Below are positions 269 to 62,737 of a DNA stretch of 64,000 nt, piece after piece; position 1 is the stretch's first letter; every line of letters begins with the position of its first letter. The position numbers and the translations under genes were made by a program. The notes below the pieces were generated by a model. It was given only the letters and a program-made list of their open reading frames with translations, did not search any database and was not told the origin of the DNA. The stretch is from an uncultured Actinomycetota bacterium (GTDB taxonomy: Bacteria > Actinomycetota > Actinomycetes > DATJPE01), in NCBI GenBank assembly GCA_963819985.1, contig CAWFYH010000004.1:466713-530712 (forward strand), written 5' to 3'.

Positions 269-3138
269 CACTACTGGAGCAGCCCGGTCTGCTGACCGAG
301 CCCGACCTCGGCACGCCCCCCGCCCCGGGTGAGGCCGCCGGTGAGACGTCGGTCGAGCTCACCGTCGACGGCCTGCCCGTCGCGGTCGCCCCCGGCACCT
401 CAGTGATGCGGGCCGCGGCGCTGGCCGGGGTCGATGTGCCGAAGCTGTGCTCGACCGACCGGCTCGACGCGTTCGGCTCTTGCCGGATGTGTCTGGTCGA
501 GATCGAGGGCGTCAAGGGCACCCCGGCGTCCTGTACGACACCCGTCGCATCCGGCATGGTCGTACGCACGCAGTCCCAGAAGGTGGACCGGCTGCGCCGC
601 GGCGTCGTCGAGCTCTATCTGTCCGACCACCCCGCCGACTGTGCCGGTGACGGCCGCTGCGAGCTGCACGGCATGGCCGAGCGGGTCGGTGTCAGTGACG
701 TGCGCTACGGCAGAGACGGGCACAACCACCTGCACGAGCACGCGGATCACTCCAACCCCTACTTCGACTACGACCCGAAGGCCTGCATCGTCTGCTCGCT
801 GTGTGTCCGCGCCTGCGACGACATCCAGGGCACGTTCGCCCTCACCATTCAGGGTCGCGGCTTCGACTCTCGGATGTCAGCCGGCACGGCCATCGACGAC
901 TTCTTCAGCTCCGAGTGCGTGTCCTGCGGTGCCTGCGTCCAGGCGTGCCCAACCGACGCGTTGCAAGAACGCAGCATCGTCGAGCTCGGCATGCCGACGC
1001 GAACCGTCCTGACCACCTGCGGATATTGCGGTGTCGGCTGCACGTTCAAAGCAGAGCTGCGCCGCGATGGCGGTGGCGACGAGCAGCTGGTGCGGATGGT
1101 CCCCTACAAGGAGGGCGGCGCCAACGAAGGCCACTCCTGCGTCAAGGGTCGGTTCGCCTACGGCTACGCGGCGCACCCCGACCGCGTGCTCAAGCCGCGG
1201 ATGCGCGAGAACATCACCGACCCGTGGCGCGAGGTGGAGTGGGACGAGGCGATCTCCTTCGTCGCACACCGGATGCGGGAGATCCAACAGCTGCATGGGC
1301 CAGGTTCGATCGGTGCAATCGCGTCGTCTCGCTGCACGGCCGAAGAAGTCTTCGTCATGCAGAAACTCGTGCGAGCAGTGTTCGGCAACAACAACGTCGA
1401 CACCTGCGGCCGGGTGTGCCACTCACCGACCGGCTACGGCCTCAACCAGACGTTCGGAACGTCGGCCGGCACCCAGGACTTCCCCTCCGTCGACGAGACC
1501 GACGTCATGCTCGTCATCGGCGCCAACCCAACCGATGCGCACCCGGTCTTCGGGTCTCGGATGAAACGAAGACTGCGGCAAGGTGCGAAGTTGATCGTGG
1601 TCGACCCGCGGCGGACAGACCTGGTGCGCTCACCGCACCTCCGAGCCGACTATCACCTGCCTGTGCGGCCGGGCACGAACGTCGCTGTGGTCAACGCGTT
1701 CTCCCACGTCGTGGTCACCGAAGGCCTGGTCGACGAGGAATTCGTTTCGACCCGTTGCGAGGGGTTCGCCGACTGGGCGTTGTTCATCGCCGAGCCCGAG
1801 CACAGCCCCGAGGCGGTCGAGGAGATCACCGGCATCCCGGCAGCCGATCTGCGCGCCGCCGCCCGGCTCTACGCCTCGGCGAGAAACGCAACCATCTACT
1901 ACGGACTCGGCGTCACCGAGCACAGTCAGGGTTCGACCATGGTGATGGGCATGGCCAACCTGGCGATGGCCACTGGCAACATCGGCCGCTCCGGTGTCGG
2001 CGTGAACCCGTTGCGCGGGCAGAACAACGTCCAGGGCTCCTGCGACATGGGCTCTTTCCCGCACGAGTACCCCGGCTACCGCCACGTCGGCGACGACGAC
2101 GTTCGCGGCATCTTCGAGCGCGCCTGGGGCGTACCACTGCACGCGGAGCCGGGCTTGCGGATCCCTAACATGTTCGACGCCGCCATCGACGGAACGTTCC
2201 GTGCGTTGTTCGTACAGGGCGAGGACATCGCTCAGTCCGACCCGAATCTCAATCACGTGCGCGCCGCGCTCAGCAGCCTCGACCTGCTCGTCGTGCAGGA
2301 CCTGTTTGAGGTCGAGACGTCCAAGTTCGCGCACGTGCTGTTGCCTGGCACGTCGTTCCTCGAGAAGGACGGCACGTTCATCAACTCCGAGCGGCGCATC
2401 AATCGGGTCCGCCCGGTCATGGAGCCCAAGTGCGGAAAGCAGGAGTGGGAGGTCACGTGCGAGATCGCGCTGGCTATGGGCTACTCGATGCACTACGACG
2501 ACGCCAGCCAGATCATGGACGAGATCGCCATGACGACGCCCACCTTCGCTGGTGTGTCGTTCGACCTGCTCGACCGGGTCGGCAGCGTGCAGTGGCCGTG
2601 CAACAGCGCGGCGCCACTCGGTACGCCGGTGATGCACGTCGACGAGTTCGTTCGTGGCAAGGGCCGTTTCGTCGAGACAACCTATGTCCCGACCCTGGAG
2701 CGAACGACCCGTCGGTTCCCCCTCATCCTGACCACCGGTCGGATCCTGTCGCAGTACAACGTCGGCTCGCAGACCAGACGCACCGACAACGTGACCTGGC
2801 ACGATCGCGACGTGCTTGAGCTTCACCCGCATGACGCCGAGGACCGCGGCATCAGCGACGGCGATCTCGTCACACTGACCAGCCGCGTCGGGACGACCAC
2901 TGTGCAAGCCAAGGTCGCGGAGCGGATGCCGGTCGGCGTCTGCTACACGACCTTCCACCACCCGGAGACTGGCGCGAACGTCATCACCACCGAGCACTCC
3001 GACTGGGCCACGAACTGCCCCGAGTACAAGGTCACCGCTGTGCAGGTGGAGCTCGCCCACCCGCGCACCGCGGGTGAGGCGGTGGGTGTCGAGGCGCGGC
3101 ACGTACCTGCCCGTTCGGGGGCCGGACTCGGTGACTGA
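265..3138 (+). CDS. fdsA: formate dehydrogenase alpha subunit (NuoG-like 2Fe-2S/4Fe-4S N-terminus plus molybdopterin oxidoreductase domains)
   Basis: 957-aa ORF. N-terminal CRMCLVEIEGV (2Fe-2S), CxxCxxC ferredoxin motifs, and a molybdopterin oxidoreductase body (GANPTDAHPV) with a C-terminal MopB_CT-like domain. Sits between fdsB-like and fdsD-like genes. Confidence 0.9.
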   Translation: MTLLEQPGLLTEPDLGTPPAPGEAAGETSVELTVDGLPVAVAPGTSVMRAAALAGVDVPKLCSTDRLDAFGSCRMCLVEIEGVKGTPASCTTPVASGMVVRTQSQKVDRLRRGVVELYLSDHPADCAGDGRCELHGMAERVGVSDVRYGRDGHNHLHEHADHSNPYFDYDPKACIVCSLCVRACDDIQGTFALTIQGRGFDSRMSAGTAIDDFFSSECVSCGACVQACPTDALQERSIVELGMPTRTVLTTCGYCGVGCTFKAELRRDGGGDEQLVRMVPYKEGGANEGHSCVKGRFAYGYAAHPDRVLKPRMRENITDPWREVEWDEAISFVAHRMREIQQLHGPGSIGAIASSRCTAEEVFVMQKLVRAVFGNNNVDTCGRVCHSPTGYGLNQTFGTSAGTQDFPSVDETDVMLVIGANPTDAHPVFGSRMKRRLRQGAKLIVVDPRRTDLVRSPHLRADYHLPVRPGTNVAVVNAFSHVVVTEGLVDEEFVSTRCEGFADWALFIAEPEHSPEAVEEITGIPAADLRAAARLYASARNATIYYGLGVTEHSQGSTMVMGMANLAMATGNIGRSGVGVNPLRGQNNVQGSCDMGSFPHEYPGYRHVGDDDVRGIFERAWGVPLHAEPGLRIPNMFDAAIDGTFRALFVQGEDIAQSDPNLNHVRAALSSLDLLVVQDLFEVETSKFAHVLLPGTSFLEKDGTFINSERRINRVRPVMEPKCGKQEWEVTCEIALAMGYSMHYDDASQIMDEIAMTTPTFAGVSFDLLDRVGSVQWPCNSAAPLGTPVMHVDEFVRGKGRFVETTYVPTLERTTRRFPLILTTGRILSQYNVGSQTRRTDNVTWHDRDVLELHPHDAEDRGISDGDLVTLTSRVGTTTVQAKVAERMPVGVCYTTFHHPETGANVITTEHSDWATNCPEYKVTAVQVELAHPRTAGEAVGVEARHVPARSGAGLGD

Positions 3139-3142
3139 CACT

Positions 3143-3448
3143 ATGACTGAGGCGGCTGATCCGCCGCATTTGCCCTCCTACGTGCGGCTCGCGAACGAGA
3201 TCGCTGTGCAGTTCCCCCAGCTCTCTGAGGACGACGCGGCGGATGCGGTCGCGGCGCACATCCGCCGGTTCTGGGATCCGCGGATGCGGGCCGGGCTGCA
3301 CAAGCACCTCGCCGCCGGTGGTGCCGATCTGCTGCCGATCTCCCGGGCGGCCGCGACACTGCTGGACTCAGGTAGCGGCCGGCTAGGCATCCACGCTCGC
3401 CGAACGCCGGGAAAGTGTGCGTTCAGCGGCATCCCCCACGATTACTAG
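3143..3448 (+). CDS. fdsD: formate dehydrogenase delta subunit (FdsD-like accessory protein)
   Basis: ATG at 3143, 5 nt after the fdsA stop. RLANEIAVQF...HIRRFWDPRMR matches the FdsD signature (RMANQIA...KFWEPRMR). The longer 3074 ORF start overlaps fdsA and is less likely. Confidence 0.6.
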   Translation: MTEAADPPHLPSYVRLANEIAVQFPQLSEDDAADAVAAHIRRFWDPRMRAGLHKHLAAGGADLLPISRAAATLLDSGSGRLGIHARRTPGKCAFSGIPHDY

Positions 3449-3461
3449 ACTGCTCGAGCCC

Positions 3462-3534
3462 GCCCTCGTAGCTCAGGGGATAGAGCAACGGTTTCCTAAA
3501 CCGTGTGTCGGCAGTTCGATTCTGCCCGGGGGCA
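3462..3534 (+). tRNA. tRNA-Arg (anticodon CCT)
   Basis: 73-nt cloverleaf read by hand. Acceptor GCCCTCG/CGGGGGC (one G-U), D-arm GCTC-AGGGGATA-GAGC, anticodon arm ACGGT-TTCCTAA-ACCGT (CCT at 3495-3497), T-arm GGCAG-TTCGATT-CTGCC, discriminator A. CCA is not encoded. Confidence 0.85.
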
Positions 3535-3651
3535 CAAGCACCCGACTGGCAACGTCGGACCCAGTTCGGGGACCATCCTCCGGGCACGCCAACGCCGGGG
3601 ACCGTGCCTGGGCGCAGGCCCTGAGATCCACGGTCTGTTGGCGGTAGATTC

Positions 3652-3972
3652 TTGGCCGAGACAGCCAGAGGGGCTGGAACGCCGTGCAAGCTTGCAGGTG
3701 TCCGCAGCTCCCGGGTCCGCGACACCACCACCGCCTCTGAGGGTCTTCGGACGTTCGTCCCGCTAACTGTCATCGACTTCCTCGAGCGCGCTGCGTTGGT
3801 CTACTCAGACCGCGTCGGCGTCGTTGACGAGCCTGATCAACCGGCGATGTCGCTGGGTTCGTGGACCTACTGGCAGTTCGCTGACGCGGCCGGCTCCCAA
3901 GCCGCAGTCCTCGACCGTGCCGGTTGCCCGGCGGCGCCGTGCCGACCATCGACTGCGACCTCTATCACGTGA
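3652..3972 (+). pseudogene. truncated remnant of an AMP-dependent acyl-CoA synthetase (FadD-like) gene, N-terminal ~100 codons only
   Basis: The translation contains PLTVIDFLERAALVYSDRVGVVDEP...SWTYWQFADAAGSQAAVLDRAG, the typical N-terminus of fatty-acid-CoA ligases. The frame ends after 106 aa with no AMP-binding core. It lies between a tRNA and the nar operon. Confidence 0.4.
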
Positions 3973-7811: not shown

Positions 7812-10121
7812 ATGAGGGTCATGGCCCAGATGGGCATGGTGATGAACCTCGACAAGTGCATCGGGTGTCACACCTGCTCGGTCACCTGCAAGCAGACCTG
7901 GACCAACCGGGCTGGGGTGGAGTACGTCTGGTTCAACAACGTCGAGACCCGACCCGGCCAAGGTTATCCGCGCCGCAATGACGACCAAGAGACGTGGAAG
8001 GGTGGCTGGAAGCTCAACCGGCGTGGCCGGTTGGCGCTGCGCTCCGGTGGCCGACTGCGCCGCCTGTTGGGGATCTTCGCCAGCCCGGTGCTACCCGAGC
8101 TCGAGGACTACTACGAGCCCTGGACCTACGACTACGCCAACTTGATCGATGCCCCGCTCGGTGATGACTTCCCGGTCGCTCGACCGAAGTCGCTGATCAC
8201 CGGCCAAGACACCAAGGTCACCTGGTCGTCGAACTGGGACGACAACTTGGGTGGCGCAACTGAGTACGGCCACCTCGACCCGATCGTGGAGAAGCTCCGG
8301 GCCGAGTCCTCGGACAAGATCAAGTTCGAGTTCGAGCAGACCTTCATGTTCTATCTGCCACGAATCTGCGAGCACTGTCTGAATCCTGCCTGTCTGGCCT
8401 CATGTCCCTCGGGGGCGATCTACAAGCGGACTGAAGACGGCATCGTGCTGGTGGACCAGGACAAATGCCGAGGGTGGCGACAGTGCATCACCGCCTGTCC
8501 GTACAAGAAGATCTACTTCAACCACAAGACAGGCAAGGCCGAGAAGTGCACGTTCTGCTACCCCCGCATCGAGGTCGGCCTGCCCACCGTGTGTGCCGAG
8601 ACCTGCGTGGGGCGGCTGCGTTACATCGGGTTGTTCCTCTACGACGCAGACAAGGTCACGGCGGCAGCATCCCAGCCCGATGACCAGGACCTGTACGAGG
8701 CGCACCTCGACCTGATCCTGGATCCGACTGACCCCGAGGTGATTGCGGGTGCTCGGGCTGAGGGCATCCCGGACGACTGGATGGATGCCGCCCGCAGGTC
8801 GCCGGTCTATGCCCTCGCGAAGAAGTACAAGGTCGCGCTGCCGCTGCATCCCGAGTTCCGGACCATGCCGATGGTTTGGTACGTCCCGCCGTTGTCGCCG
8901 ATCGTCGACCTGCTGAGGGACCAGGGGCACGACGCGGAGGACCAGGGCAACCTGTTCGGCGCCATCGACGCCTTGCGCATCCCGGTCGAATACCTCGCCG
9001 AGCTGCTCAGCGCCGGTGATACCGAGGTCATCACCACGGTGCTGCAGCGGTTGGCCGCGATGCGCTCGTACATGCGGGGCATCACCCTCGGGGGTGAGGG
9101 AGATGAGTCGATAGCCGAGTCCGTCGGCATGTCCGGTGGCGGCTTGTACGAGATGTATCGACTGATGGCGATCGCCAAGTACGAGGACCGCTACGTCATC
9201 CCCAAGGCCCACGAGGAGCAAGCCCACGACCTCGAGGAGATGGGCTGCTCCGTCGACTTCTACGACGAGGGACCAGGAGCGGGCATGTTCGGCGAGGCGT
9301 CTGGGCGACCGGTCCCCGTGGCGGTCGAGACCTTCGAGGCCCTCAAACGTCGACAGACCTCCGAAGGCATCGCATCCGCGGAGTCCATGCACGGTCGGGT
9401 CAATCTGCTCAACTGGGACGGCGTGGGGGTGCCCGTCGGACTGTTCCCCGGAGTGCAACGACGTGAGCGGCAGCGACGACGCTGGAGACGGCCGATGAGC
9501 ACCCGAGTGGTCCACCAGGTCGCTGCCCGGTGCCTGGACCACCCGCAAGGAGCGTTGCTGGCTTGCCTCCCGGATCTGCAGTCTGCCGTCTGGGTGCTGC
9601 CAGCTCGCCAACGCGACTCTTTCCAACCGTTGCTGGACCACCTGACTGAAACGCCGCTTCCGGTCCTTCAACGCGAATACGTCGACGTGTTCGACATGAC
9701 CAAGAAGCACGCGCTGTACCTTTCGTACTGGACCGACGGCGACACCCGGCGGCGCGGCGAGGTGCTCGCGGCGTTCAAGGCGCGCTACCGCGCGAGCGGC
9801 TGGTTGGTCGACACCCACGGCGAGCTGCCGGACTACCTACCGATGGTCCTCGAGTACGCAGCCCTCGCCGACCCGGTCGATGGGCCTGTGCTGCTTCAGG
9901 AGTACCGAGCGAGCCTGGAGCTGCTCAAGTTCGCGCTGCGCGCCGCGCAGACACCGTATGCAGGTGTGCTCGATGCCGTCTGCGACACCCTTCCGGGTGC
10001 CTCGCCGAAGGATGCTGCGGCGGTCCACCGGCTAGCCGCAGAAGGCCCCCCACGCGAGCAGGTCGGACTCGATGCTTACGATCCGCGATTGCTGTCGATG
10101 GCCGCTGGAGGGTCCCGATGA
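7812..10121 (+). CDS. narH: respiratory nitrate reductase beta subunit with a NarJ (Mo-cofactor assembly chaperone) region fused in frame
   Basis: The N-terminal 561 aa are classic NarH (four Cys clusters CIGCHTC..., CEHCLNPAC..., CRGWRQC..., CTFCYPR...). There is no stop before an in-frame ATG at 9495. After it comes a ~208-aa NarJ-like region (LQREYVDVFD...GELPDYLPMVLEYAAL). The stop overlaps the narI start. Confidence 0.85.
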   Translation: MRVMAQMGMVMNLDKCIGCHTCSVTCKQTWTNRAGVEYVWFNNVETRPGQGYPRRNDDQETWKGGWKLNRRGRLALRSGGRLRRLLGIFASPVLPELEDYYEPWTYDYANLIDAPLGDDFPVARPKSLITGQDTKVTWSSNWDDNLGGATEYGHLDPIVEKLRAESSDKIKFEFEQTFMFYLPRICEHCLNPACLASCPSGAIYKRTEDGIVLVDQDKCRGWRQCITACPYKKIYFNHKTGKAEKCTFCYPRIEVGLPTVCAETCVGRLRYIGLFLYDADKVTAAASQPDDQDLYEAHLDLILDPTDPEVIAGARAEGIPDDWMDAARRSPVYALAKKYKVALPLHPEFRTMPMVWYVPPLSPIVDLLRDQGHDAEDQGNLFGAIDALRIPVEYLAELLSAGDTEVITTVLQRLAAMRSYMRGITLGGEGDESIAESVGMSGGGLYEMYRLMAIAKYEDRYVIPKAHEEQAHDLEEMGCSVDFYDEGPGAGMFGEASGRPVPVAVETFEALKRRQTSEGIASAESMHGRVNLLNWDGVGVPVGLFPGVQRRERQRRRWRRPMSTRVVHQVAARCLDHPQGALLACLPDLQSAVWVLPARQRDSFQPLLDHLTETPLPVLQREYVDVFDMTKKHALYLSYWTDGDTRRRGEVLAAFKARYRASGWLVDTHGELPDYLPMVLEYAALADPVDGPVLLQEYRASLELLKFALRAAQTPYAGVLDAVCDTLPGASPKDAAAVHRLAAEGPPREQVGLDAYDPRLLSMAAGGSR

Positions 10122-21900: not shown

Positions 21901-23037
21901 ATGTCAGATTTCGTACCCGGGCTCGAGGGCATCATCGCCTTCGAGACCGAGATCGCCGAACCTGACCGCGACGGTGGCTCCCTGCGGTATCGCGGCGTGG
22001 ACATCGAAGACTTGGTCGGCCGGGTTTCCTACGGGCAAGTATGGGGCCTGTTGGTCGACAACGAGTTCAACCCAGGCCTGCCACCCGCCGAGCCGTTCCC
22101 GATCCCGATCCACTCCGGCGACGTACGCGTAGACGTGCAGTCAGCGATCGCGATGCTCGCGCCGGCCTGGGGCCTGAAGCCGCTGCTGGACATCGATCAC
22201 GACGAGGCTCGAGAAAACCTCTCGCACGTGTCCGTGATGGCGCTGTCTTTCGTGGCGCAGTCCGCGCGCGGCCTCGGCGAGCCCATGGTGCCGCAGGCGC
22301 GCATCGACGAGGCCCAAACCATCGTCGAGCGGTTCATGATCCGCTGGCGCGAGGATCCTGACCCCAAGCACGTCGAGGCCGTGGACGCCTACTTCGTCTC
22401 GGCGGCCGAGCACGGAATGAACGCCTCCACCTTCACCTCACGCGTCATCGCCTCCACCGGGGCGGACGTCGCGGCAGCCATCTCCGGGGCCGTGGGTGCC
22501 ATGAGCGGCCCCTTGCACGGTGGAGCACCTTCACGCGTCCTGGGCATGATCGAGGAGATCGAGCGCCGCGGGGACGCCACCAGCTATGTCAAGGAGCTGC
22601 TCGACCGAGGCGACCGGCTGATGGGTTTCGGTCACCGGGTGTACCGCGCTGAAGACCCGCGCGCCCGCGTGCTGCGACGTACGGCGAAGCTGCTGGGCGC
22701 CCCCCGCTACGAGGTCGCCGAAGCCTTGGAAAAGGCCGCGCTCGAGGAGCTGCGCGCACGTCGCCCCGACCGAGTGCTCGAGACCAACGTCGAGTTCTGG
22801 GCGGCGATCGTGCTGGACTTCGCAGAGGTGCCTGCTCACTTGTTCACCTCGATGTTTACCTGCGCCCGGCTCGCCGGCTGGAGCGCGCACATCCTCGAGC
22901 AGAAGGAGACCGGGCGCCTGATCCGGCCGTCAGCTCGCTACGTGGGACCAGCACCCCGCAAGCCCGAAGAGGTCCCCGGCTGGGACCCCGTCATGGTTGC
23001 GCCATCCGGCTACACCCTCGCGCCAAGAACCACCTAG
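21901..23037 (+). CDS. citrate synthase (type II, CitA-like)
   Basis: Starts MSDFVPGLEGIIAFETEIAEPD. Citrate synthase active-site region (GFGHRVY, HG..G.PS). ~379 aa, resembling the mycobacterial CitA paralogue. Confidence 0.85.
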   Translation: MSDFVPGLEGIIAFETEIAEPDRDGGSLRYRGVDIEDLVGRVSYGQVWGLLVDNEFNPGLPPAEPFPIPIHSGDVRVDVQSAIAMLAPAWGLKPLLDIDHDEARENLSHVSVMALSFVAQSARGLGEPMVPQARIDEAQTIVERFMIRWREDPDPKHVEAVDAYFVSAAEHGMNASTFTSRVIASTGADVAAAISGAVGAMSGPLHGGAPSRVLGMIEEIERRGDATSYVKELLDRGDRLMGFGHRVYRAEDPRARVLRRTAKLLGAPRYEVAEALEKAALEELRARRPDRVLETNVEFWAAIVLDFAEVPAHLFTSMFTCARLAGWSAHILEQKETGRLIRPSARYVGPAPRKPEEVPGWDPVMVAPSGYTLAPRTT

Positions 23038-23216
23038 TTCAGCCGGCCACTCAAGGGGGCTGGCCGTGCGGTTGCCCGCGACCTGTGAGCCCTCACACGA
23101 GGGAATCGGAAGTGGGATTGGCTTTGTGGTACTAGTGCCATCGTCCCATGGCGTCAGGCACCACCCGGCGTGGGTAATGGGGGCAGTGGACCATCGACTG
23201 ACCCGAGGAGCACCCC

Positions 23217-23591
23217 ATGAAGCGCCTGCTCGCCTTCAGCGTCCTCGCCGCAGCAGCCGTCGTGCCTGCCGTGGTTGGGCTCGCCGGAAACGCATCCTTC
23301 GCGGAGACAGTCCCGGTGCGCGTCCCAGCGCAGGCCCAAGTCGAGGATGACCCCGGTAGCAAGTCAGCCCACCTCGAACCCGGCGATGACGGAGACGACT
23401 CCAGGCACCACGAAGACGACTCCAGACACCACGAAGACGACTCCAGACACCACGAAGACGACTCCAGACACCACGAAGACGGCGACTCCAGACACAATGG
23501 GGACGACTCCAGACACAGCGAAGGCGACGACTCCAAACACCACGAAGACGACGACTCCAGACACAGTGGGGAGGGCTCAGGCCACTCGTGA
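23217..23591 (+). CDS. secreted His/Asp-rich tandem-repeat protein
   Basis: GAGGAG RBS. Signal peptide MKRLLAFSVLAAAAVVPAVVGLAGNASFA. Then about seven copies of the 8-aa unit DDSRHHED (and variants). Stop overlaps the start of the sensor kinase gene. Confidence 0.7.
   Translation: MKRLLAFSVLAAAAVVPAVVGLAGNASFAETVPVRVPAQAQVEDDPGSKSAHLEPGDDGDDSRHHEDDSRHHEDDSRHHEDDSRHHEDGDSRHNGDDSRHSEGDDSKHHEDDDSRHSGEGSGHS
23394..23570 (+). repeat. 24-bp tandem repeat array (~7 copies; gacgactccagacaccacgaagac) inside the His-rich protein gene
   Basis: Head-to-tail 24-nt units visible directly in the sequence, in frame. Copies vary at a few positions (aggcac/agacac, cacgaa/aatggg/agcgaa). Confidence 0.85.
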
Positions 23592-25024
23592 CCGGGATGT
23601 CTGAGAGCACGGGATCCGTAGAGACCCCTTCGGTCTCCTCGGCACTTCCTGCTCCCCCGAACCGGGCCTCCCCATGGGTGGTGGTGACCGACGGCCCCGG
23701 CCGCCCGGCACTGGCCCATCAGCCCGTGCGGATGCGCAGAATCTTCATTCAGGTCATCGCGGCTGCGGCCGTGGTCTTCGTGGCCGTGGCTGTGGTGGGG
23801 GTCTTCGCAAGCCGTCGCGTGGCGGAACGACAGTCGGTGAATGCTGCCGCCCAGACGACTGACCTGCTTGCCGACTCAGTCGTTCAGCCGGCGATTGAGG
23901 ACGGCCTGCTGACCGGTTCGGCGGCCGCGCTCGACAGGCTCGACCAAGCGGTCCGCTCGTCCGTACTCGGCTCGAGAGTGGTGAGGGTCAAAGTCTGGAC
24001 CCCGGAGGGGCAGATCATCTACTCCGATGAGCCAAGGATCGTCGGCGAAACCTTCGACCTCGGGGAGGAGGAACGCTCGGTTCTGGAGAGACCGACGACG
24101 CACGCCGAGGTCAGCGATCTCACCCGCCCGGAGAACCGCTACGAAACGGGGGGAGGCAAGCTCCTCGAGGTCTACCGGCCGATCTGGACGCCGAGCGGGC
24201 AGCCGCTCTTGTTCGAGACATACATGCCCTACGACTCGGTAACGACAAGGACCGGTGAGCTGTGGCGCGGGTTCGCCGGGATCACCCTGGCCAGCCTGCT
24301 GCTCCTGATCGCGCTCATGTTGCCCATTCTGTGGCGGCTACTGGACCAGGTGAACAAGGCCCGAGATCAGCAGGTGGCGCTACTCGAGCATGCCGTCGAC
24401 GCATCCTCCGACGAGAGGAGGCGCATCGCGGCGACCCTTCACGACGGCGTTGTCCAGGAGTTGGCGGCGGCGTCCTTCGCGGTGTCCGGGGCTGCAGAGC
24501 GAGCCACAACGGACGGCAGACGGGACCTTGCAGATGTGCTGACAGGCGCGGCGGCCGCTGTCCGAGGGACTATCGGAGGATTGCGCTCACTCCTTGTCGA
24601 TATCTACCCGCCGAGTCTGCGCACGGCTGGCCTGGTCGCGGCGTTGACCGACCTCGCAGGCACTGTGCAGACCCGGGACATCGACGTCCACCTGGACCTC
24701 CCTGCGGACAATATGACCGGACTTGATGAGGCGCAGGAGCGCCTCGTGTTCCGGGTCGCACAGGAGGCGTTGAGAAACACGGCGAGCCACGCGGCAGCAG
24801 CTCGCGTCGACCTGGCGCTCGTCGTAGCCGGGCACAGAGTGCTGCTCTCAGTGTGCGACGACGGCGTGGGCTTCGACGTCAACGCCGCCCTCCGCAGTCC
24901 GCCCCAAGGCCACCTGGGATTGAGGGTCATGAGGGACCTCGCCGCACAGTCCGGTGCCCGTCTGGAAGTTTCTTCAGCGCCAGGAGCAGGCACCTGTTGG
25001 AAGCTGACGATTCCCCGCCGATGA
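23588..25024 (+). CDS. two-component sensor histidine kinase, NarL/DesK-type (HisKA_3 + HATPase) with a periplasmic sensor domain between two TM helices
   Basis: TM1 ~aa 55-75, extracytoplasmic ~150-aa domain, TM2 ~aa 235-255. H-box ERRRIAATLHDGVVQEL and an ATPase domain (GLRVMRDLAAQSGARLEVSSAPGAGT). Overlaps the upstream and downstream genes by 4 nt each. Confidence 0.85.
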   Translation: MTGMSESTGSVETPSVSSALPAPPNRASPWVVVTDGPGRPALAHQPVRMRRIFIQVIAAAAVVFVAVAVVGVFASRRVAERQSVNAAAQTTDLLADSVVQPAIEDGLLTGSAAALDRLDQAVRSSVLGSRVVRVKVWTPEGQIIYSDEPRIVGETFDLGEEERSVLERPTTHAEVSDLTRPENRYETGGGKLLEVYRPIWTPSGQPLLFETYMPYDSVTTRTGELWRGFAGITLASLLLLIALMLPILWRLLDQVNKARDQQVALLEHAVDASSDERRRIAATLHDGVVQELAAASFAVSGAAERATTDGRRDLADVLTGAAAAVRGTIGGLRSLLVDIYPPSLRTAGLVAALTDLAGTVQTRDIDVHLDLPADNMTGLDEAQERLVFRVAQEALRNTASHAAAARVDLALVVAGHRVLLSVCDDGVGFDVNAALRSPPQGHLGLRVMRDLAAQSGARLEVSSAPGAGTCWKLTIPRR

Positions 25025-25656
25025 TCACCATCCTGCTCGCCGACGACCACAGCCTGGTACGCGCCGGGCTCGCTGCACTGCTGGACGGCACCGATGACCT
25101 TCGGGTTGTCGGACAGGCGGAGAACGGTCGACGTGCCGTGGAACTCTCCAGTGACCTCAGACCAGACGTCGTCTTGATGGATCTGTCCATGCCGGTCATG
25201 GACGGAGTCGAGGCGACCAGAGAACTGCTCCGGACCCAGCCGGACAGCATCGTTGTCGTGCTCACCTCCTTCTCGGACCATCAGCGGGTTGGCGATGCGC
25301 TGCGCGCAGGTGCCGTCGGCTATCTCCTGAAGGACTGCGACCCGGGCGACTTGCTGGCCGCTGTGCGCGCCGCAGCACGGGGCCATGCGCCACTGGACCC
25401 GCGAGTAGCCCGAGCCCTCCTTCCCTCGGCCGACGCCGCATCGCCAGCTGCGGGCATCAGCGCCCGCGAGATGCAGGTCCTTCGTCTTGCCGCGCGCGGA
25501 CTCGCCAACAAGCAGATCGGTCGGTCGCTCGGCATCAGCGAACGCACCGTCAAGGCGCATCTAGGGAAAGTGTTTCGACACATCGGCGTGAGCGACCGGA
25601 CGAGCGCAGCGCTGTGGGCACGCGAGCACCTCCCGCCAGAAAACGAAGGGTCCTGA
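25021..25656 (+). CDS. two-component response regulator, NarL/LuxR family
   Basis: MITILLADDHSLVRAGL... receiver with the phospho-acceptor Asp in VVLMDLSMP, and a C-terminal LuxR HTH (EMQVLRLAARGLANKQIGRSLGISERTVKAHL). Confidence 0.9.
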   Translation: MITILLADDHSLVRAGLAALLDGTDDLRVVGQAENGRRAVELSSDLRPDVVLMDLSMPVMDGVEATRELLRTQPDSIVVVLTSFSDHQRVGDALRAGAVGYLLKDCDPGDLLAAVRAAARGHAPLDPRVARALLPSADAASPAAGISAREMQVLRLAARGLANKQIGRSLGISERTVKAHLGKVFRHIGVSDRTSAALWAREHLPPENEGS

Positions 25657-25886
25657 TGGCGTCGCCTGGTGCGTCACAGACTTCCGACCACCCTGGGTGA
25701 ACCGTCACGCCTTGAGACGACCCTTCACGGTTGTACACCTCACCCGCGCGCGGACCTCTCCAGGCTCGTCCGCTCACGGGTGTCGCACAGTGGTCCTACG
25801 ACCATTGCCCAATGGCGTCCCCGACCCATCTGCCTCGACGCTCATCGATGACAGCAGCAGTTTCGGCCCAAAGAGGGAGCACAACG

Positions 25887-26282
25887 ATGAGCAGGAAGAA
25901 GATCAACGGAATGGTGGTGGCGGTAACGCTCGCAGCGCTGGCCGTACCGATCACGCTTGCCGGCCCAGCGCAGGGCAAGGGTTCCGACGCCGTCAGAGCG
26001 CAGGGCACCTGCTCCAACGGCGCCACCTGGAAACTGAAGGCCAAGCACGATGATGCCCGGATTGAATGGGAGTTCGAGGTCGACACGAACCATTCTGGTC
26101 AGGTCTGGTCGGTAAGGGTCACCGACAACGGGAACAAGGTTTTCGCTGGCCGACGAACCACTCACGGGCCGAGCGGTTCCTTCAGCATCGAACGCCGGAC
26201 GGCTGACCGAGCGGGCATCGACACCGTCAGGGCGACCGCCACCCGCGGAGACGCCATCTGCTCCGCCAAGGTCAAAGTCTGA
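25887..26282 (+). CDS. small secreted protein of unknown function
   Basis: ATG 25887 behind a GAGGGAG RBS. Signal peptide MSRKKINGMVVAVTLAALAVPITLAGPAQG. ~100-aa mature beta-rich domain with two Cys. Confidence 0.55.
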   Translation: MSRKKINGMVVAVTLAALAVPITLAGPAQGKGSDAVRAQGTCSNGATWKLKAKHDDARIEWEFEVDTNHSGQVWSVRVTDNGNKVFAGRRTTHGPSGSFSIERRTADRAGIDTVRATATRGDAICSAKVKV

Positions 26283-26430
26283 CCCCTGTCGAGGGCCGGT
26301 CCTGGCGGGCATCCCTCCGCCAGGAACGGTCTGCAGCCGAGCATGAGCTGAGCAGCTCGACGCTCGTTGAGGAGGCCGAAGTCCAGAACCCCCATTTCCC
26401 GTGCCGTTCCATCCCTACCTTGGAGAATCC

Positions 26431-26919
26431 GTGACCGATCTCGATGCCAAAGCGACAAACGGCAGTCCACCAGGCCTCACCACGGGAGGTCCGAGTCGCC
26501 GAACCGTAGTCCTCACGGGAGGCGTCCTTGCCGCGGCGGCCGTCACCGCCGCTTGCAGTTCGAGTGGCTCGAACATCTCAACGCCCGGGCCGACCGCCAC
26601 AGGCGAGGCGTCAGCCAAAGCAGATGCGGGGACGGCGACAACCGTGCAGACCGGAGACATCCCCGTTCGAGGCGGCGACATCCTGGCTGATCAGAAGATC
26701 GTCGTCACCCAGCCGACCGCCGGAGCGTACAAGGCGTTCACGGCTGTGTGTACCCATCAAGGGTGCACCGTCTCGTCAATCGCCGACGGCGCGATCCAAT
26801 GCCCGTGCCACGGCAGCCAGTATTCAATCGCCGACGGCTCGGTGCTCGGCGGTCCAGCGCCGCGGCCGCTCGCAGCACTACCCATCACCGTGTCCGGCAC
26901 CACCATCACCGTGGGTTAG
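26431..26919 (+). CDS. Tat-exported Rieske [2Fe-2S] lipoprotein
   Basis: GTG 26431 behind GGAGAA. Twin-arginine SRRTVVLTGGVLAAAAV followed by lipobox AACSS. C-terminal CTHQGC...CPCHGSQY Rieske motifs. Confidence 0.75.
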   Translation: MTDLDAKATNGSPPGLTTGGPSRRTVVLTGGVLAAAAVTAACSSSGSNISTPGPTATGEASAKADAGTATTVQTGDIPVRGGDILADQKIVVTQPTAGAYKAFTAVCTHQGCTVSSIADGAIQCPCHGSQYSIADGSVLGGPAPRPLAALPITVSGTTITVG

Positions 26920-27015
26920 GACTGGCGCTTCTGCACAGCCTGCAACTGCACGCCCGAGTGGCCGGGTCGCGAGGTGTCCATCGCGGCGATCGCCGAGGGC
27001 TGAGCGCAACATCTC

Positions 27016-62027: not shown

Positions 62028-62737
62028 CTGTCGAGCAGACGCCTGCTGACTCCCCCGCTGCCGAATTCTTGACTGCTGACAGCCCGATCCGGCTGGTCAT
62101 CGTCGACGACCACCCGCTCATGCGCGACGCGCTGCGGGCGTTGATGAGTTCGCTTCCCGACTTCGTGGTGGTCGGTGAAGCAAACGACGGGCTGACCGCG
62201 GCGAAAGAGGTCCAGCTGACCCGGCCCGACGTCGTGATCATGGACCTGCACCTGCCAGGGGCCAGTGGCATCGAGGCCACCCGAGCCATCCGCGAGAACT
62301 CACCCGGCACGAAAGTTCTCGTGCTGACCATGCTGGAGGACGATGACTCGGTCTTTTCAGCCATGCGCGCCGGCGCAGCGGGCTACGTGGTCAAAGGCGC
62401 GCAGCAGGACGAGATCGTGCGGTCGATTCGTTCGGTCGCTGCTGGCCAGGCCGTGTTCGGTCCATCCATCGCCGAACGCATCAGGGACTACTTTGCGCGC
62501 GGCAGCGCGAGGGCCACCCCCCGCGCCCCCTTCCCAGAGCTGACCCCGCGAGAACGCGAGATCCTCGACCTCGTGGCTCAGGGGCGGTCCAACTCATCGA
62601 TCGCGCAGATATTGGTGATCAGCACCAAGACGGTCAGTAACCACATCTCCGCCATCTTCGCCAAACTGGCCGTGGCGGATCGCTCCGAGGCCATCGTTCG
62701 GGCCCGCCAGGCCGGCCTCGGAGGCACGACGGACTGA
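62024..62737 (+). CDS. two-component response regulator, NarL/LuxR family
   Basis: ATGA-coupled to the kinase gene. Receiver domain (VVIMDLHLPG) plus LuxR HTH (EILDLVAQGRSNSSIAQILVISTKTVSNHI). Confidence 0.9.
   Translation: MTVEQTPADSPAAEFLTADSPIRLVIVDDHPLMRDALRALMSSLPDFVVVGEANDGLTAAKEVQLTRPDVVIMDLHLPGASGIEATRAIRENSPGTKVLVLTMLEDDDSVFSAMRAGAAGYVVKGAQQDEIVRSIRSVAAGQAVFGPSIAERIRDYFARGSARATPRAPFPELTPREREILDLVAQGRSNSSIAQILVISTKTVSNHISAIFAKLAVADRSEAIVRARQAGLGGTTD

Follow-up and report, generated by a model that had tools for sequence, protein, structure and literature searches.

Why does a gene for a predicted exported, His- and Asp-rich repeat protein lie immediately in front of the genes of a two-component system, and even overlap with them? 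The question is raised by a stretch of 64,000 nucleotides (nt) from an uncultured Actinomycetota bacterium (assembly GCA_963819985.1, contig CAWFYH010000004.1, positions 466,713 to 530,712 of the forward strand), in the following called the window, in which the gene for the repeat protein, here the accessory gene, is followed by genes for a sensor histidine kinase and a response regulator. A reading made from the letters of the window alone, here the sequence-only reading, had proposed that the repeat protein may be an accessory of the kinase that buffers or senses divalent metals. Comparison across species strongly supports the accessory part of this proposal, and judged by conservation and gene order the protein is most likely an extracytoplasmic helper of the sensor kinase. 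We read the three genes as an autoregulated three-component signalling operon of Actinomycetes, the first gene of which would encode an exported polyanionic co-sensor or modulator, and give this reading about an even chance of being correct.

Linkage of the accessory family to a kinase and a regulator

The kinase has many close homologues, and a scan for them with one genome per species yielded 80 loci, which carry L numbers where they have to be told apart. With a profile hidden Markov model (HMM) built on the first 40 residues of the accessory family, a match directly upstream of the orthologous kinase gene and on the same strand was obtained at 67 of the 80 loci, which are 67 of 70 assessable ones, as ten of the 13 misses have less than 430 nt of upstream DNA. 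Thus, the opposite of an accessory gene that is absent or unlinked in the relatives, the outcome the sequence-only reading had named as adverse to its proposal, was found. The loci are spread over metagenome-assembled genomes (MAGs) labelled Nanopelagicales and other Actinomycetota MAGs, Cellulomonas, Marmoricola/Nocardioidaceae, Phycicoccus/Pedococcus/Lapillicoccus, Kineosporia, Pseudonocardiales, Streptosporangiales-type MAGs and Rathayibacter. The association also holds in the reverse direction: starting from accessory proteins, the next two genes encoded a HisKA_3 kinase and then a REC-GerE regulator in all three look-ups, and two of these three junctions show a 4-nt overlap or no gap at all.

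No Pfam or NCBIfam model exists for the accessory family. The window protein has no Pfam family at E<=0.01, and no Pfam family recurs among 35 accessory members, the most frequent one, DUF4179, being found in only two of them. The family profile finds 318 proteins that, where named at all, are labelled “hypothetical protein” or, in a few cases, bear an unrelated automatic name, and an exhaustive profile search returned 537 representatives at 50% identity (E<=1e-3), of which 320 have E<=1e-10. One protein that is annotated as a response regulator, P0215 (329 amino acids (aa), from a Jatrophihabitantaceae MAG), is matched by the accessory profile along 85% of the query and has REC and GerE domains as well; it is probably a gene-calling fusion. 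The accessory open reading frame (ORF) of the window, 23217-23591, is evidently truly coding, since the N- and C-terminal motifs of the family are kept in the same frame across the 67 loci. An antisense ORF of 195 aa (23132-23719, reverse strand) spans the whole accessory gene; it most likely owes its existence to the high G+C content, because the family-conserved motifs sit in the sense frame.

Judged by their domains, the kinase and the regulator form a NarL/LuxR-type two-component system (HisKA_3 and REC-GerE). The kinase consists of a cytoplasmic N-terminal tail, a first transmembrane helix (TM1), an extracytoplasmic alpha/beta domain of about 150 aa, a second transmembrane helix (TM2), a HisKA_3 domain (PF07730, E=5.5e-9, above its cutoff) and a HATPase_c domain (PF02518, E=1.5e-9, 38.7 bits vs. 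a cutoff of 26.4). The phospho-acceptor H285 (ATLHDGV) is invariant in 21 orthologues, TM2 is nearly invariant among the orthologues, and Foldseek matches the kinase to the catalytic cores of DesK and VraS. The regulator is recognized by PF00072 (Response_reg, 98 bits) and PF00196 (GerE, 65.8 bits). Neither protein reaches the whole-protein cutoff of a named NCBIfam equivalog (NarXL/NarQP, UhpBA, LiaSR, MctSR, MadSR, MacSR): the best kinase match, MctS, covers only the cytoplasmic core with 114.7 bits vs. a cutoff of 700, and the best regulator match, MadR, scores 169 vs. 300.

In the AlphaFold model of the kinase the long helices 49-102 and 215-269 enclose the extracytoplasmic domain with a predicted local distance difference test (pLDDT) score above 90. 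The outside domain is highly conserved in the orthologue alignment, with many invariant acidic and basic residues and no invariant His or Cys. In the model it runs through helices, two strands, a helix and three strands, an order that would suit a PDC/PAS-like sensor. A profile of the sensor domain found nothing among the PDB sequences even at E<=10, and Foldseek with the full-length model matched mostly the cytoplasmic core and is uninformative on the sensor domain; the structure that comes closest to the full-length model is WalK-YycH (integrative model 9a5d), with a low TM-score. A CusS-type metal sensor domain (PF21085) was considered and rejected, as it scores 22.0 bits vs. a gathering threshold of 24.1 and was found in one of 21 orthologues.

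The three genes are tightly packed (Table 1). The accessory stop codon TGA (23589-23591) overlaps the GTG start of the kinase gene at 23588 within GTGA, and the alternative start, ATG 23597, lies 5 nt past the accessory stop and is the one used in the closest relative (MSE...), so that accessory gene and kinase gene are tightly coupled with either start. The kinase stop and the regulator ATG share the ATGA at 25021-25024. The sequence-only reading was exact in the coordinates and the order of the genes, and both of the overlaps it described are present, as is the extracytoplasmic kinase domain of about 150 aa, which is confidently modelled between the two long helices.

Table 1. Positions of the accessory gene, its partner genes and associated elements in the window.
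Feature	Position	Strand	Basis or remark
Candidate promoter/operator cassette GGTACTAGTGCC-ATCGTCCCATGGCG, 12-nt palindrome and 14-nt block	23128..23153	+	starts 89 nt before the accessory ATG
Shine-Dalgarno-like GAGGAG	23205..23210	+	6 nt before ATG 23217, read from the sequence
Accessory gene, predicted exported intrinsically disordered His/Asp-rich repeat protein, 124 aa	23217..23591	+	ORF call, composition, family profile
Conserved N-terminal module: signal-peptide-like/anchor segment (residues 1-29) and ETVPVRVP segment	23217..23327	+	residue conservation
Tandem repeat array, period 21, 7.5 copies, score 211	23389..23552	+	Tandem Repeats Finder (TRF)
Sensor histidine kinase, 478 aa from GTG 23588 (alternative ATG 23597)	23588..25024	+	Pfam, orthologue alignment, AlphaFold model
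NarL/LuxR-type response regulator, 211 aa, REC and GerE helix-turn-helix	25021..25656	+	Pfam
Second cassette copy GGTCCTACGACC-ATTGCCCAATGGCG	25792..25817	+	starts 95 nt before ATG 25887; matrix score 23.2 bits
Gene for a predicted secreted all-beta (Ig-like sandwich) protein, 131 aa, two invariant Cys	25887..26282	+	linked to the module

Conserved N-terminus and variable polyanionic tail

The accessory protein of the window begins with MKRLLAFSVLAAAAVVPAVVGLAGNASFA, which by inspection looks like a Sec signal peptide, with the n-region MKR, a hydrophobic region of 21 residues and small residues before VPVRVP. It continues with ETVPVRVPAQAQVEDDPGSKSAHLEPGDDG and eight DS[R/K]H units and ends in GEGSGHS; it contains neither a lipobox Cys nor a folded domain. 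Across the family, whose members are 95-340 aa long, the N-terminus follows the pattern M-K-R-(hydrophobic)-VPAxxGLxGNxSF-xx-VPVRVP, in which P17, A18, G21, L22, G24, N25, S27, P33, V34 and P37 are conserved to at least 90%. The C-terminus reads DDG[SA]GH[SQ] or GHGSDD, and the tail in between is variable, disordered and rich in AEPGDD[RKH]GG, DDHGG and SGS/DDS repeats, with PGDD motifs in 46 of 56 members. The invariant N-x-S was set aside as an N-glycosylation sequon, since several members have Pro at its middle position. In 19 genomes that encode both the accessory protein and the linked Ig-like protein, the N-terminal segment of the accessory protein has a mean pairwise identity of 56%, compared to 30% for the signal peptide and 50% for the folded domain of the Ig-like protein. 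The hydrophobic part of the N-terminal segment is thus under a sequence-specific constraint, which suggests that the segment does more than direct export; it could act as an anchor that is retained or as a site of specific contact or processing.

The tail consists, over 56 members, of 21.5% Gly, 16.3% Asp, 15.0% Ser, 8.4% Ala, 8.2% Thr, 6.3% His, 6.3% Pro and 6.2% Arg. Such a composition, with only 3.8% hydrophobic residues, is characteristic of an intrinsically disordered polyanion. Within the family the window protein is extreme: with 18.3% His it ranks first of the 56 members (family median 5.7%, minimum 1.8%), and its 36.6% Asp plus Glu is the family maximum. Its mature part of 95 aa holds 15 His, 21 Asp and 10 Glu; the pI is calculated as 4.75, and the calculated charge changes steeply, from about -20 at pH 7 to about -3 at pH 5. 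The sequence-only reading had counted about 20 His, which is too many, and its figures hold approximately, not exactly. Similarly, the repeats it had described as seven DDSRHHED-like units of 24 bp are present, but there are eight DS[R/K]H units, running from 23397 up to the stop codon. Their DNA lengths of 21, 21, 21, 24, 21, 24 and 24 bp, followed by a terminal unit, together with the period of 21 reported by TRF, define a mixed 21/24-bp array instead of a 24-bp repeat.

The expectation that the repeats vary holds between species. The two closest relatives, with kinases 92% and 89% identical to that of the window, have quite unlike tracts, namely ten DDNSGHGG units in L035 and a degenerate tract in L001. 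Repeat turnover between species is clear from the alignment, since the nucleotide identity with these two relatives is 55-57% in the tract vs. 84-90% in the flanking coding sequence. In metagenome contigs, two exact-pattern scans found no same-species alleles that would show variation between strains, and the exact accessory protein of the window has no record as a called gene. Within the repeat units (23397-23575) the rare codon AGA accounts for 6 of 9 Arg codons vs. 11 of 117 in the neighbouring genes, and the Glu codon of the unit is GAA. This usage is presumably a frozen accident of unit amplification; the AGA-rich tract could also slow translation before the coupled kinase start. Furthermore, the accessory ORFs of the MFD-series MAGs L005, L057, L066, L070 and L079 shift to an Arg/Pro-rich frame within the tract, which could be an assembly indel error or real frameshift variation; errors are conceivable because all five copies come from MFD-series MAGs.

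Since the extreme His content is specific to the lineage of the window, Ca/Mg, protons and cationic ligands are as likely for the family as Ni, Zn or Cu. A family-wide role in binding Ni, Zn, Cu or Co, as it had been proposed, is weakened by the varying His content, the lack of an invariant sensor His or Cys, the lack of conserved metal-transport neighbours and the failed CusS match. Ca, Mg, protons and cationic peptides or polyamines would fit the conserved chemistry at least equally well, and the His-rich variant of the window could be extended towards transition metals or pH.

The upstream cassette and the linked Ig-like gene

The regions upstream of the accessory genes have a 26-nt cassette in common, GGTACTAGTACC-AAGGTCCGATGGCG, with the consensus GGTACTAGTACCAAGGTCCGATGGCG. 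Its palindrome is present with at most two mismatches at 51 of 60 loci, and in 48 of these the distance between palindrome and start codon is 60-110 nt, mostly 78-99 nt. Positions 22000-27000 of the window gave no Rfam match at E<=1 and RNAalifold predicted zero pairs in the consensus structure of 37 leaders, which ruled out a riboswitch or leader RNA; with neither an Rfam match nor a conserved RNA structure, the cassette is best read as a DNA promoter or operator. Beyond the cassette (columns 41-43 and 52-61 of alignment A5, about 23160-23185 in the window) two short blocks recur in many loci at a constant distance from GATGGCG, an ACC about 8 nt and a GGGAGAAAGG-like block about 18 nt downstream of it. 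They might mark the region where transcription starts, or belong to a leader. The bases that come next can pair with the Shine-Dalgarno region at some loci.

A weight matrix was built only from the cassettes upstream of accessory genes and was then used to scan the window. Besides the site at 23128 it found one strong site, at 25792-25817 with 23.2 bits, whereas the next real site scores 7.0 and the best site in shuffled windows 10.4. This second copy precedes the Ig-like gene, the product of which has no Pfam or NCBIfam family. At 23 of the 80 loci the Ig-like gene is next to the module, upstream or downstream and on either strand. Of 24 cases, 18 have a cassette 86-101 nt ahead of the start of the Ig-like gene, and this gene is a probable regulon member. 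Elsewhere, the cassette lies about 85-120 nt before gene starts at L067:3122, L014:3370, L069:4318(-) and 7447(-), L050:3894, L014:6937 and L040:562. The genes behind these copies encode a secreted “KIQAKD..GGIFQMEPE” protein family (L067, L014, L069), stand-alone receiver-domain proteins (L069, L050), a membrane protein and, in L040, a repeat protein that is considered below. The window has a second receiver-domain coding region at 62093-62443, detected by tblastn with the REC-only protein of L069 (38% identity).

Other neighbours are not shared in this way. The neighbouring citrate synthase, pdxH, Rieske and OmdA genes are of local occurrence; the Rieske [2Fe-2S] protein with a twin-arginine-like N-terminus, encoded just downstream in the window (26401-26919), is near the module in only two of 80 loci. 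In L081 (Microbacterium sp., GCA_042267145.1) members of the divalent-cation transport families CNNM/CorC, TerC and CorA flank the module (1210-3655 and 8197-8471). The CorC and TerC proteins of L081 were searched against all other loci and are present in none of them; this neighbourhood is an anecdote and not a conserved link.

Proposed mechanism, rival explanations and known systems

In the proposed three-component operon the accessory protein would be exported via Sec and then either be cleaved just before VPVRVP or be held by its N-terminal helix. Its conserved N-terminal segment would touch either the outside alpha/beta domain or the membrane helices of the kinase, and its polyanionic tail would bind cations, which may be protons, Ca/Mg, transition metals in the case of His-rich variants, cationic peptides or polyamines. 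Cation binding would alter the restraint or the activation that the accessory protein exerts on the kinase. The phosphorylated regulator is assumed to bind the GGTAC-TA-GTACC palindrome, and would thereby feed back on its own operon including the accessory gene and act on a small set of genes for secreted proteins. Changes in the repeats, by expansion, contraction and mutation, may tune ligand capacity and preference between lineages. A bolder version is tentative, and we would sooner doubt than accept it: in an Actinomycete-wide module the disordered polyanionic repeat protein, and not the folded domain of the kinase, would be the primary sensor, with an N-terminus that plugs into the kinase, a tract that sets the cation and its level, and an output in the form of a secreted regulon defined by the GGTACTAGTACC-AAGGTCCGATGGCG cassette.

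Several points weigh against the proposed operon. We infer both the contact between accessory protein and kinase and the binding of a ligand from the comparison of sequences, and the unusually high conservation of the N-terminus would fit a cleaved signal peptide as well as a retained anchor. The accessory gene is truly missing at three of the 70 assessable loci (L067, L069 and L074), where the kinase is present. The tail is hypervariable and some members contain less than 2% His, which disfavours one specific transition-metal ligand, and no conserved metal-transporter neighbour was found across the loci. The assignment of the cassette to the neighbouring regulator derives from their co-occurrence; no sigma-70-like promoter was found in the scan, and fitting the cassette by eye to sigma-70, extracytoplasmic function (ECF) sigma factor and sigma-28 spacings gave no fit. 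Finally, the cassette in L040 precedes a second secreted Asp/His-rich repeat protein (DDSRDDSRDD, HAEPGDD) that is encoded away from any kinase gene, which fits an output role of such proteins as well as a sensor role.

An output role is indeed a serious, albeit rather doubtful, alternative: the accessory protein would be a secreted polyanionic product, such as a cation or metal buffer or a mineral- or wall-binding protein, encoded by the first gene that the two-component system regulates, and the kinase would not be modulated by it. The occurrence of the cassette before other genes for secreted proteins (the Ig-like protein, the “KIQAKD..GGIFQMEPE” family in L067, L014 and L069, the repeat protein of L040) is in line with this, as is the fast evolution of the tail, which is typical of surface or matrix proteins. 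However, a near-obligate position just upstream of the kinase gene, often with overlapping stop and start codons, is unusual for a mere target, and the conservation of the N-terminal hydrophobic segment and of VPVRVP greatly exceeds the needs of export. Moreover, the analogues CiaX, CpxP and ZraP are regulon members and modulators at the same time, so the two roles are not exclusive. The conservation of the N-terminus could also mean that the helix is retained and packs on the membrane helices of the kinase, as in YycH/YycI-WalK or LiaF-LiaS, and that the acidic tail, as a spacer or bristle, has no specific ligand. The 21-residue hydrophobic stretch with the invariant small residues G21 and G24 and with N25, its identity of 56% compared to 30% in the control signal peptide, the nearly invariant kinase TM2, and the resemblance between the full-length kinase model and 9a5d, with its low TM-score, all suit such a membrane-anchored regulator. 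Yet we consider it unlikely, as most members have small residues that by inspection fit the -3/-1 rule of signal peptidase just before VPVRVP, and the preservation of the EPGDD[RKH]GG motifs and of the C-terminus across orders argues for a function beyond spacing.

The gene order also resembles that of Gram-positive pheromone loci, in which a gene for a small exported protein is followed by those of a kinase and a regulator, and a segment after the signal sequence is conserved here. That the accessory protein is the precursor of a secreted signalling peptide (a quorum-sensing pheromone) upstream of its receptor kinase, as in ComC-ComDE, is nevertheless very improbable: pheromones diversify for specificity, whereas the VPVRVP region is nearly identical across orders, the survey of the neighbourhoods found no linked ABC transporter for processing or export, and the proteins of 95-340 aa carry long repeat tails. 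A spurious or decaying low-complexity frame, created by a DNA tandem repeat in a genome of high G+C content, is effectively refuted by conservation and hardly credible. Such DNA does yield long ORFs in several frames, for example the antisense ORF at 23132-23719, and the MAG copies L005, L057, L066, L070 and L079 look frameshifted within the tract; but the same frame keeps its N- and C-terminal motifs in 67 loci, the family has 537 representatives, and a Shine-Dalgarno sequence and the conserved upstream cassette are present.

Two-component systems with extracytoplasmic helpers are known, few of them in Actinobacteria, and the proposed operon is thus a known kind of system. In the literature searched no helper was found that is a polyanionic, disordered repeat protein and has a conserved N-terminus for docking; the accessory family, its architecture, the cassette and the linked Ig-like gene all appear to be undescribed in the searched libraries and literature. 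What started as an odd His-rich ORF is now a defined family of 537 representatives that has a constant partner pair of kinase and regulator as well as a candidate operator and regulon, and its signal and mechanism are testable in the cultivable genera Cellulomonas, Kineosporia, Pedococcus and Microbacterium. If the tract does tune ligand preference, this would be a simple natural case of sensor specificity evolving by repeat change.

Among the known systems, ZraP, CpxP, HbpS and YycH/I can be regarded as the looser analogues. ZraP and CpxP are extracytoplasmic regulon members that feed back on their own kinase, and ZraP is associated with zinc. Like these accessory proteins of ZraSR and CpxAR in Enterobacteria, the accessory protein described here would be an extracytoplasmic regulon member with feedback on a kinase. 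However, ZraP and CpxP are folded helical proteins, whereas the family of the window has no Pfam model and a tail with 3.8% hydrophobic residues; the window protein and 35 members gave no match to the Pfam models of the CpxP/ZraP/Spy family. Furthermore, ZraR is sigma-54-dependent, and the genes of ZraP and CpxP are divergent or separate, in contrast to the translationally coupled accessory gene described here. YycH/YycI of WalKR, LpqB of MtrAB and CseA of CseBC, which in Gram-positive bacteria act on kinases as membrane-anchored proteins or lipoproteins, are likewise extracytoplasmic proteins that are encoded with a two-component system and control the activity of its kinase, but they have folded domains or are lipoproteins, and the accessory gene described here precedes the kinase gene instead of following it. 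HbpS, which binds haem and senses redox stress, is folded and oligomeric, unlike the accessory protein of the window, which matches no Pfam family and is predicted to be disordered and polyanionic. In the HbpS-SenS-SenR system of Streptomyces, an actinobacterial three-component system, the secreted accessory protein modulates a membrane kinase (PMC4991794).

On the side of the regulator, LuxR-type regulators as a rule use palindromic operators, for example DosR with TTSGGGACTWWAGTCCCSAA (PMC2275270). The GGTAC-TA-GTACC inverted repeat of the cassette has GG(G/T)AC half-sites as in this core of the DosR/DevR box (PMC2275270), but the half-sites are 2 nt apart in the centre compared to 4 nt in the DosR box, and the attached conserved block AAGGTCCGATGGCG has no counterpart there. 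The nearest functional precedent by analogy is CiaX-CiaRH of Streptococcus mutans, where CiaX, a secreted Ser/Asp-rich calcium-binding peptide, is encoded by the first gene of ciaXRH and calcium represses that operon through CiaX (PMC8317062). The resemblance is one of architecture only, with a small exported Ser/Asp-rich protein as the first gene of a kinase-regulator operon, and CiaRH is not a NarL/LuxR-HisKA_3 pair. Autoregulation of the operon and a cation that acts through the accessory peptide are features of CiaX-CiaRH (PMC8317062) which we propose for the operon of the window by analogy. Compared by architecture and not by sequence, the family of the window differs from CiaX in having a conserved N-terminal VPVRVP module, repeats of the type EPGDD[RKH]GG and a hypervariable tail that is much longer.

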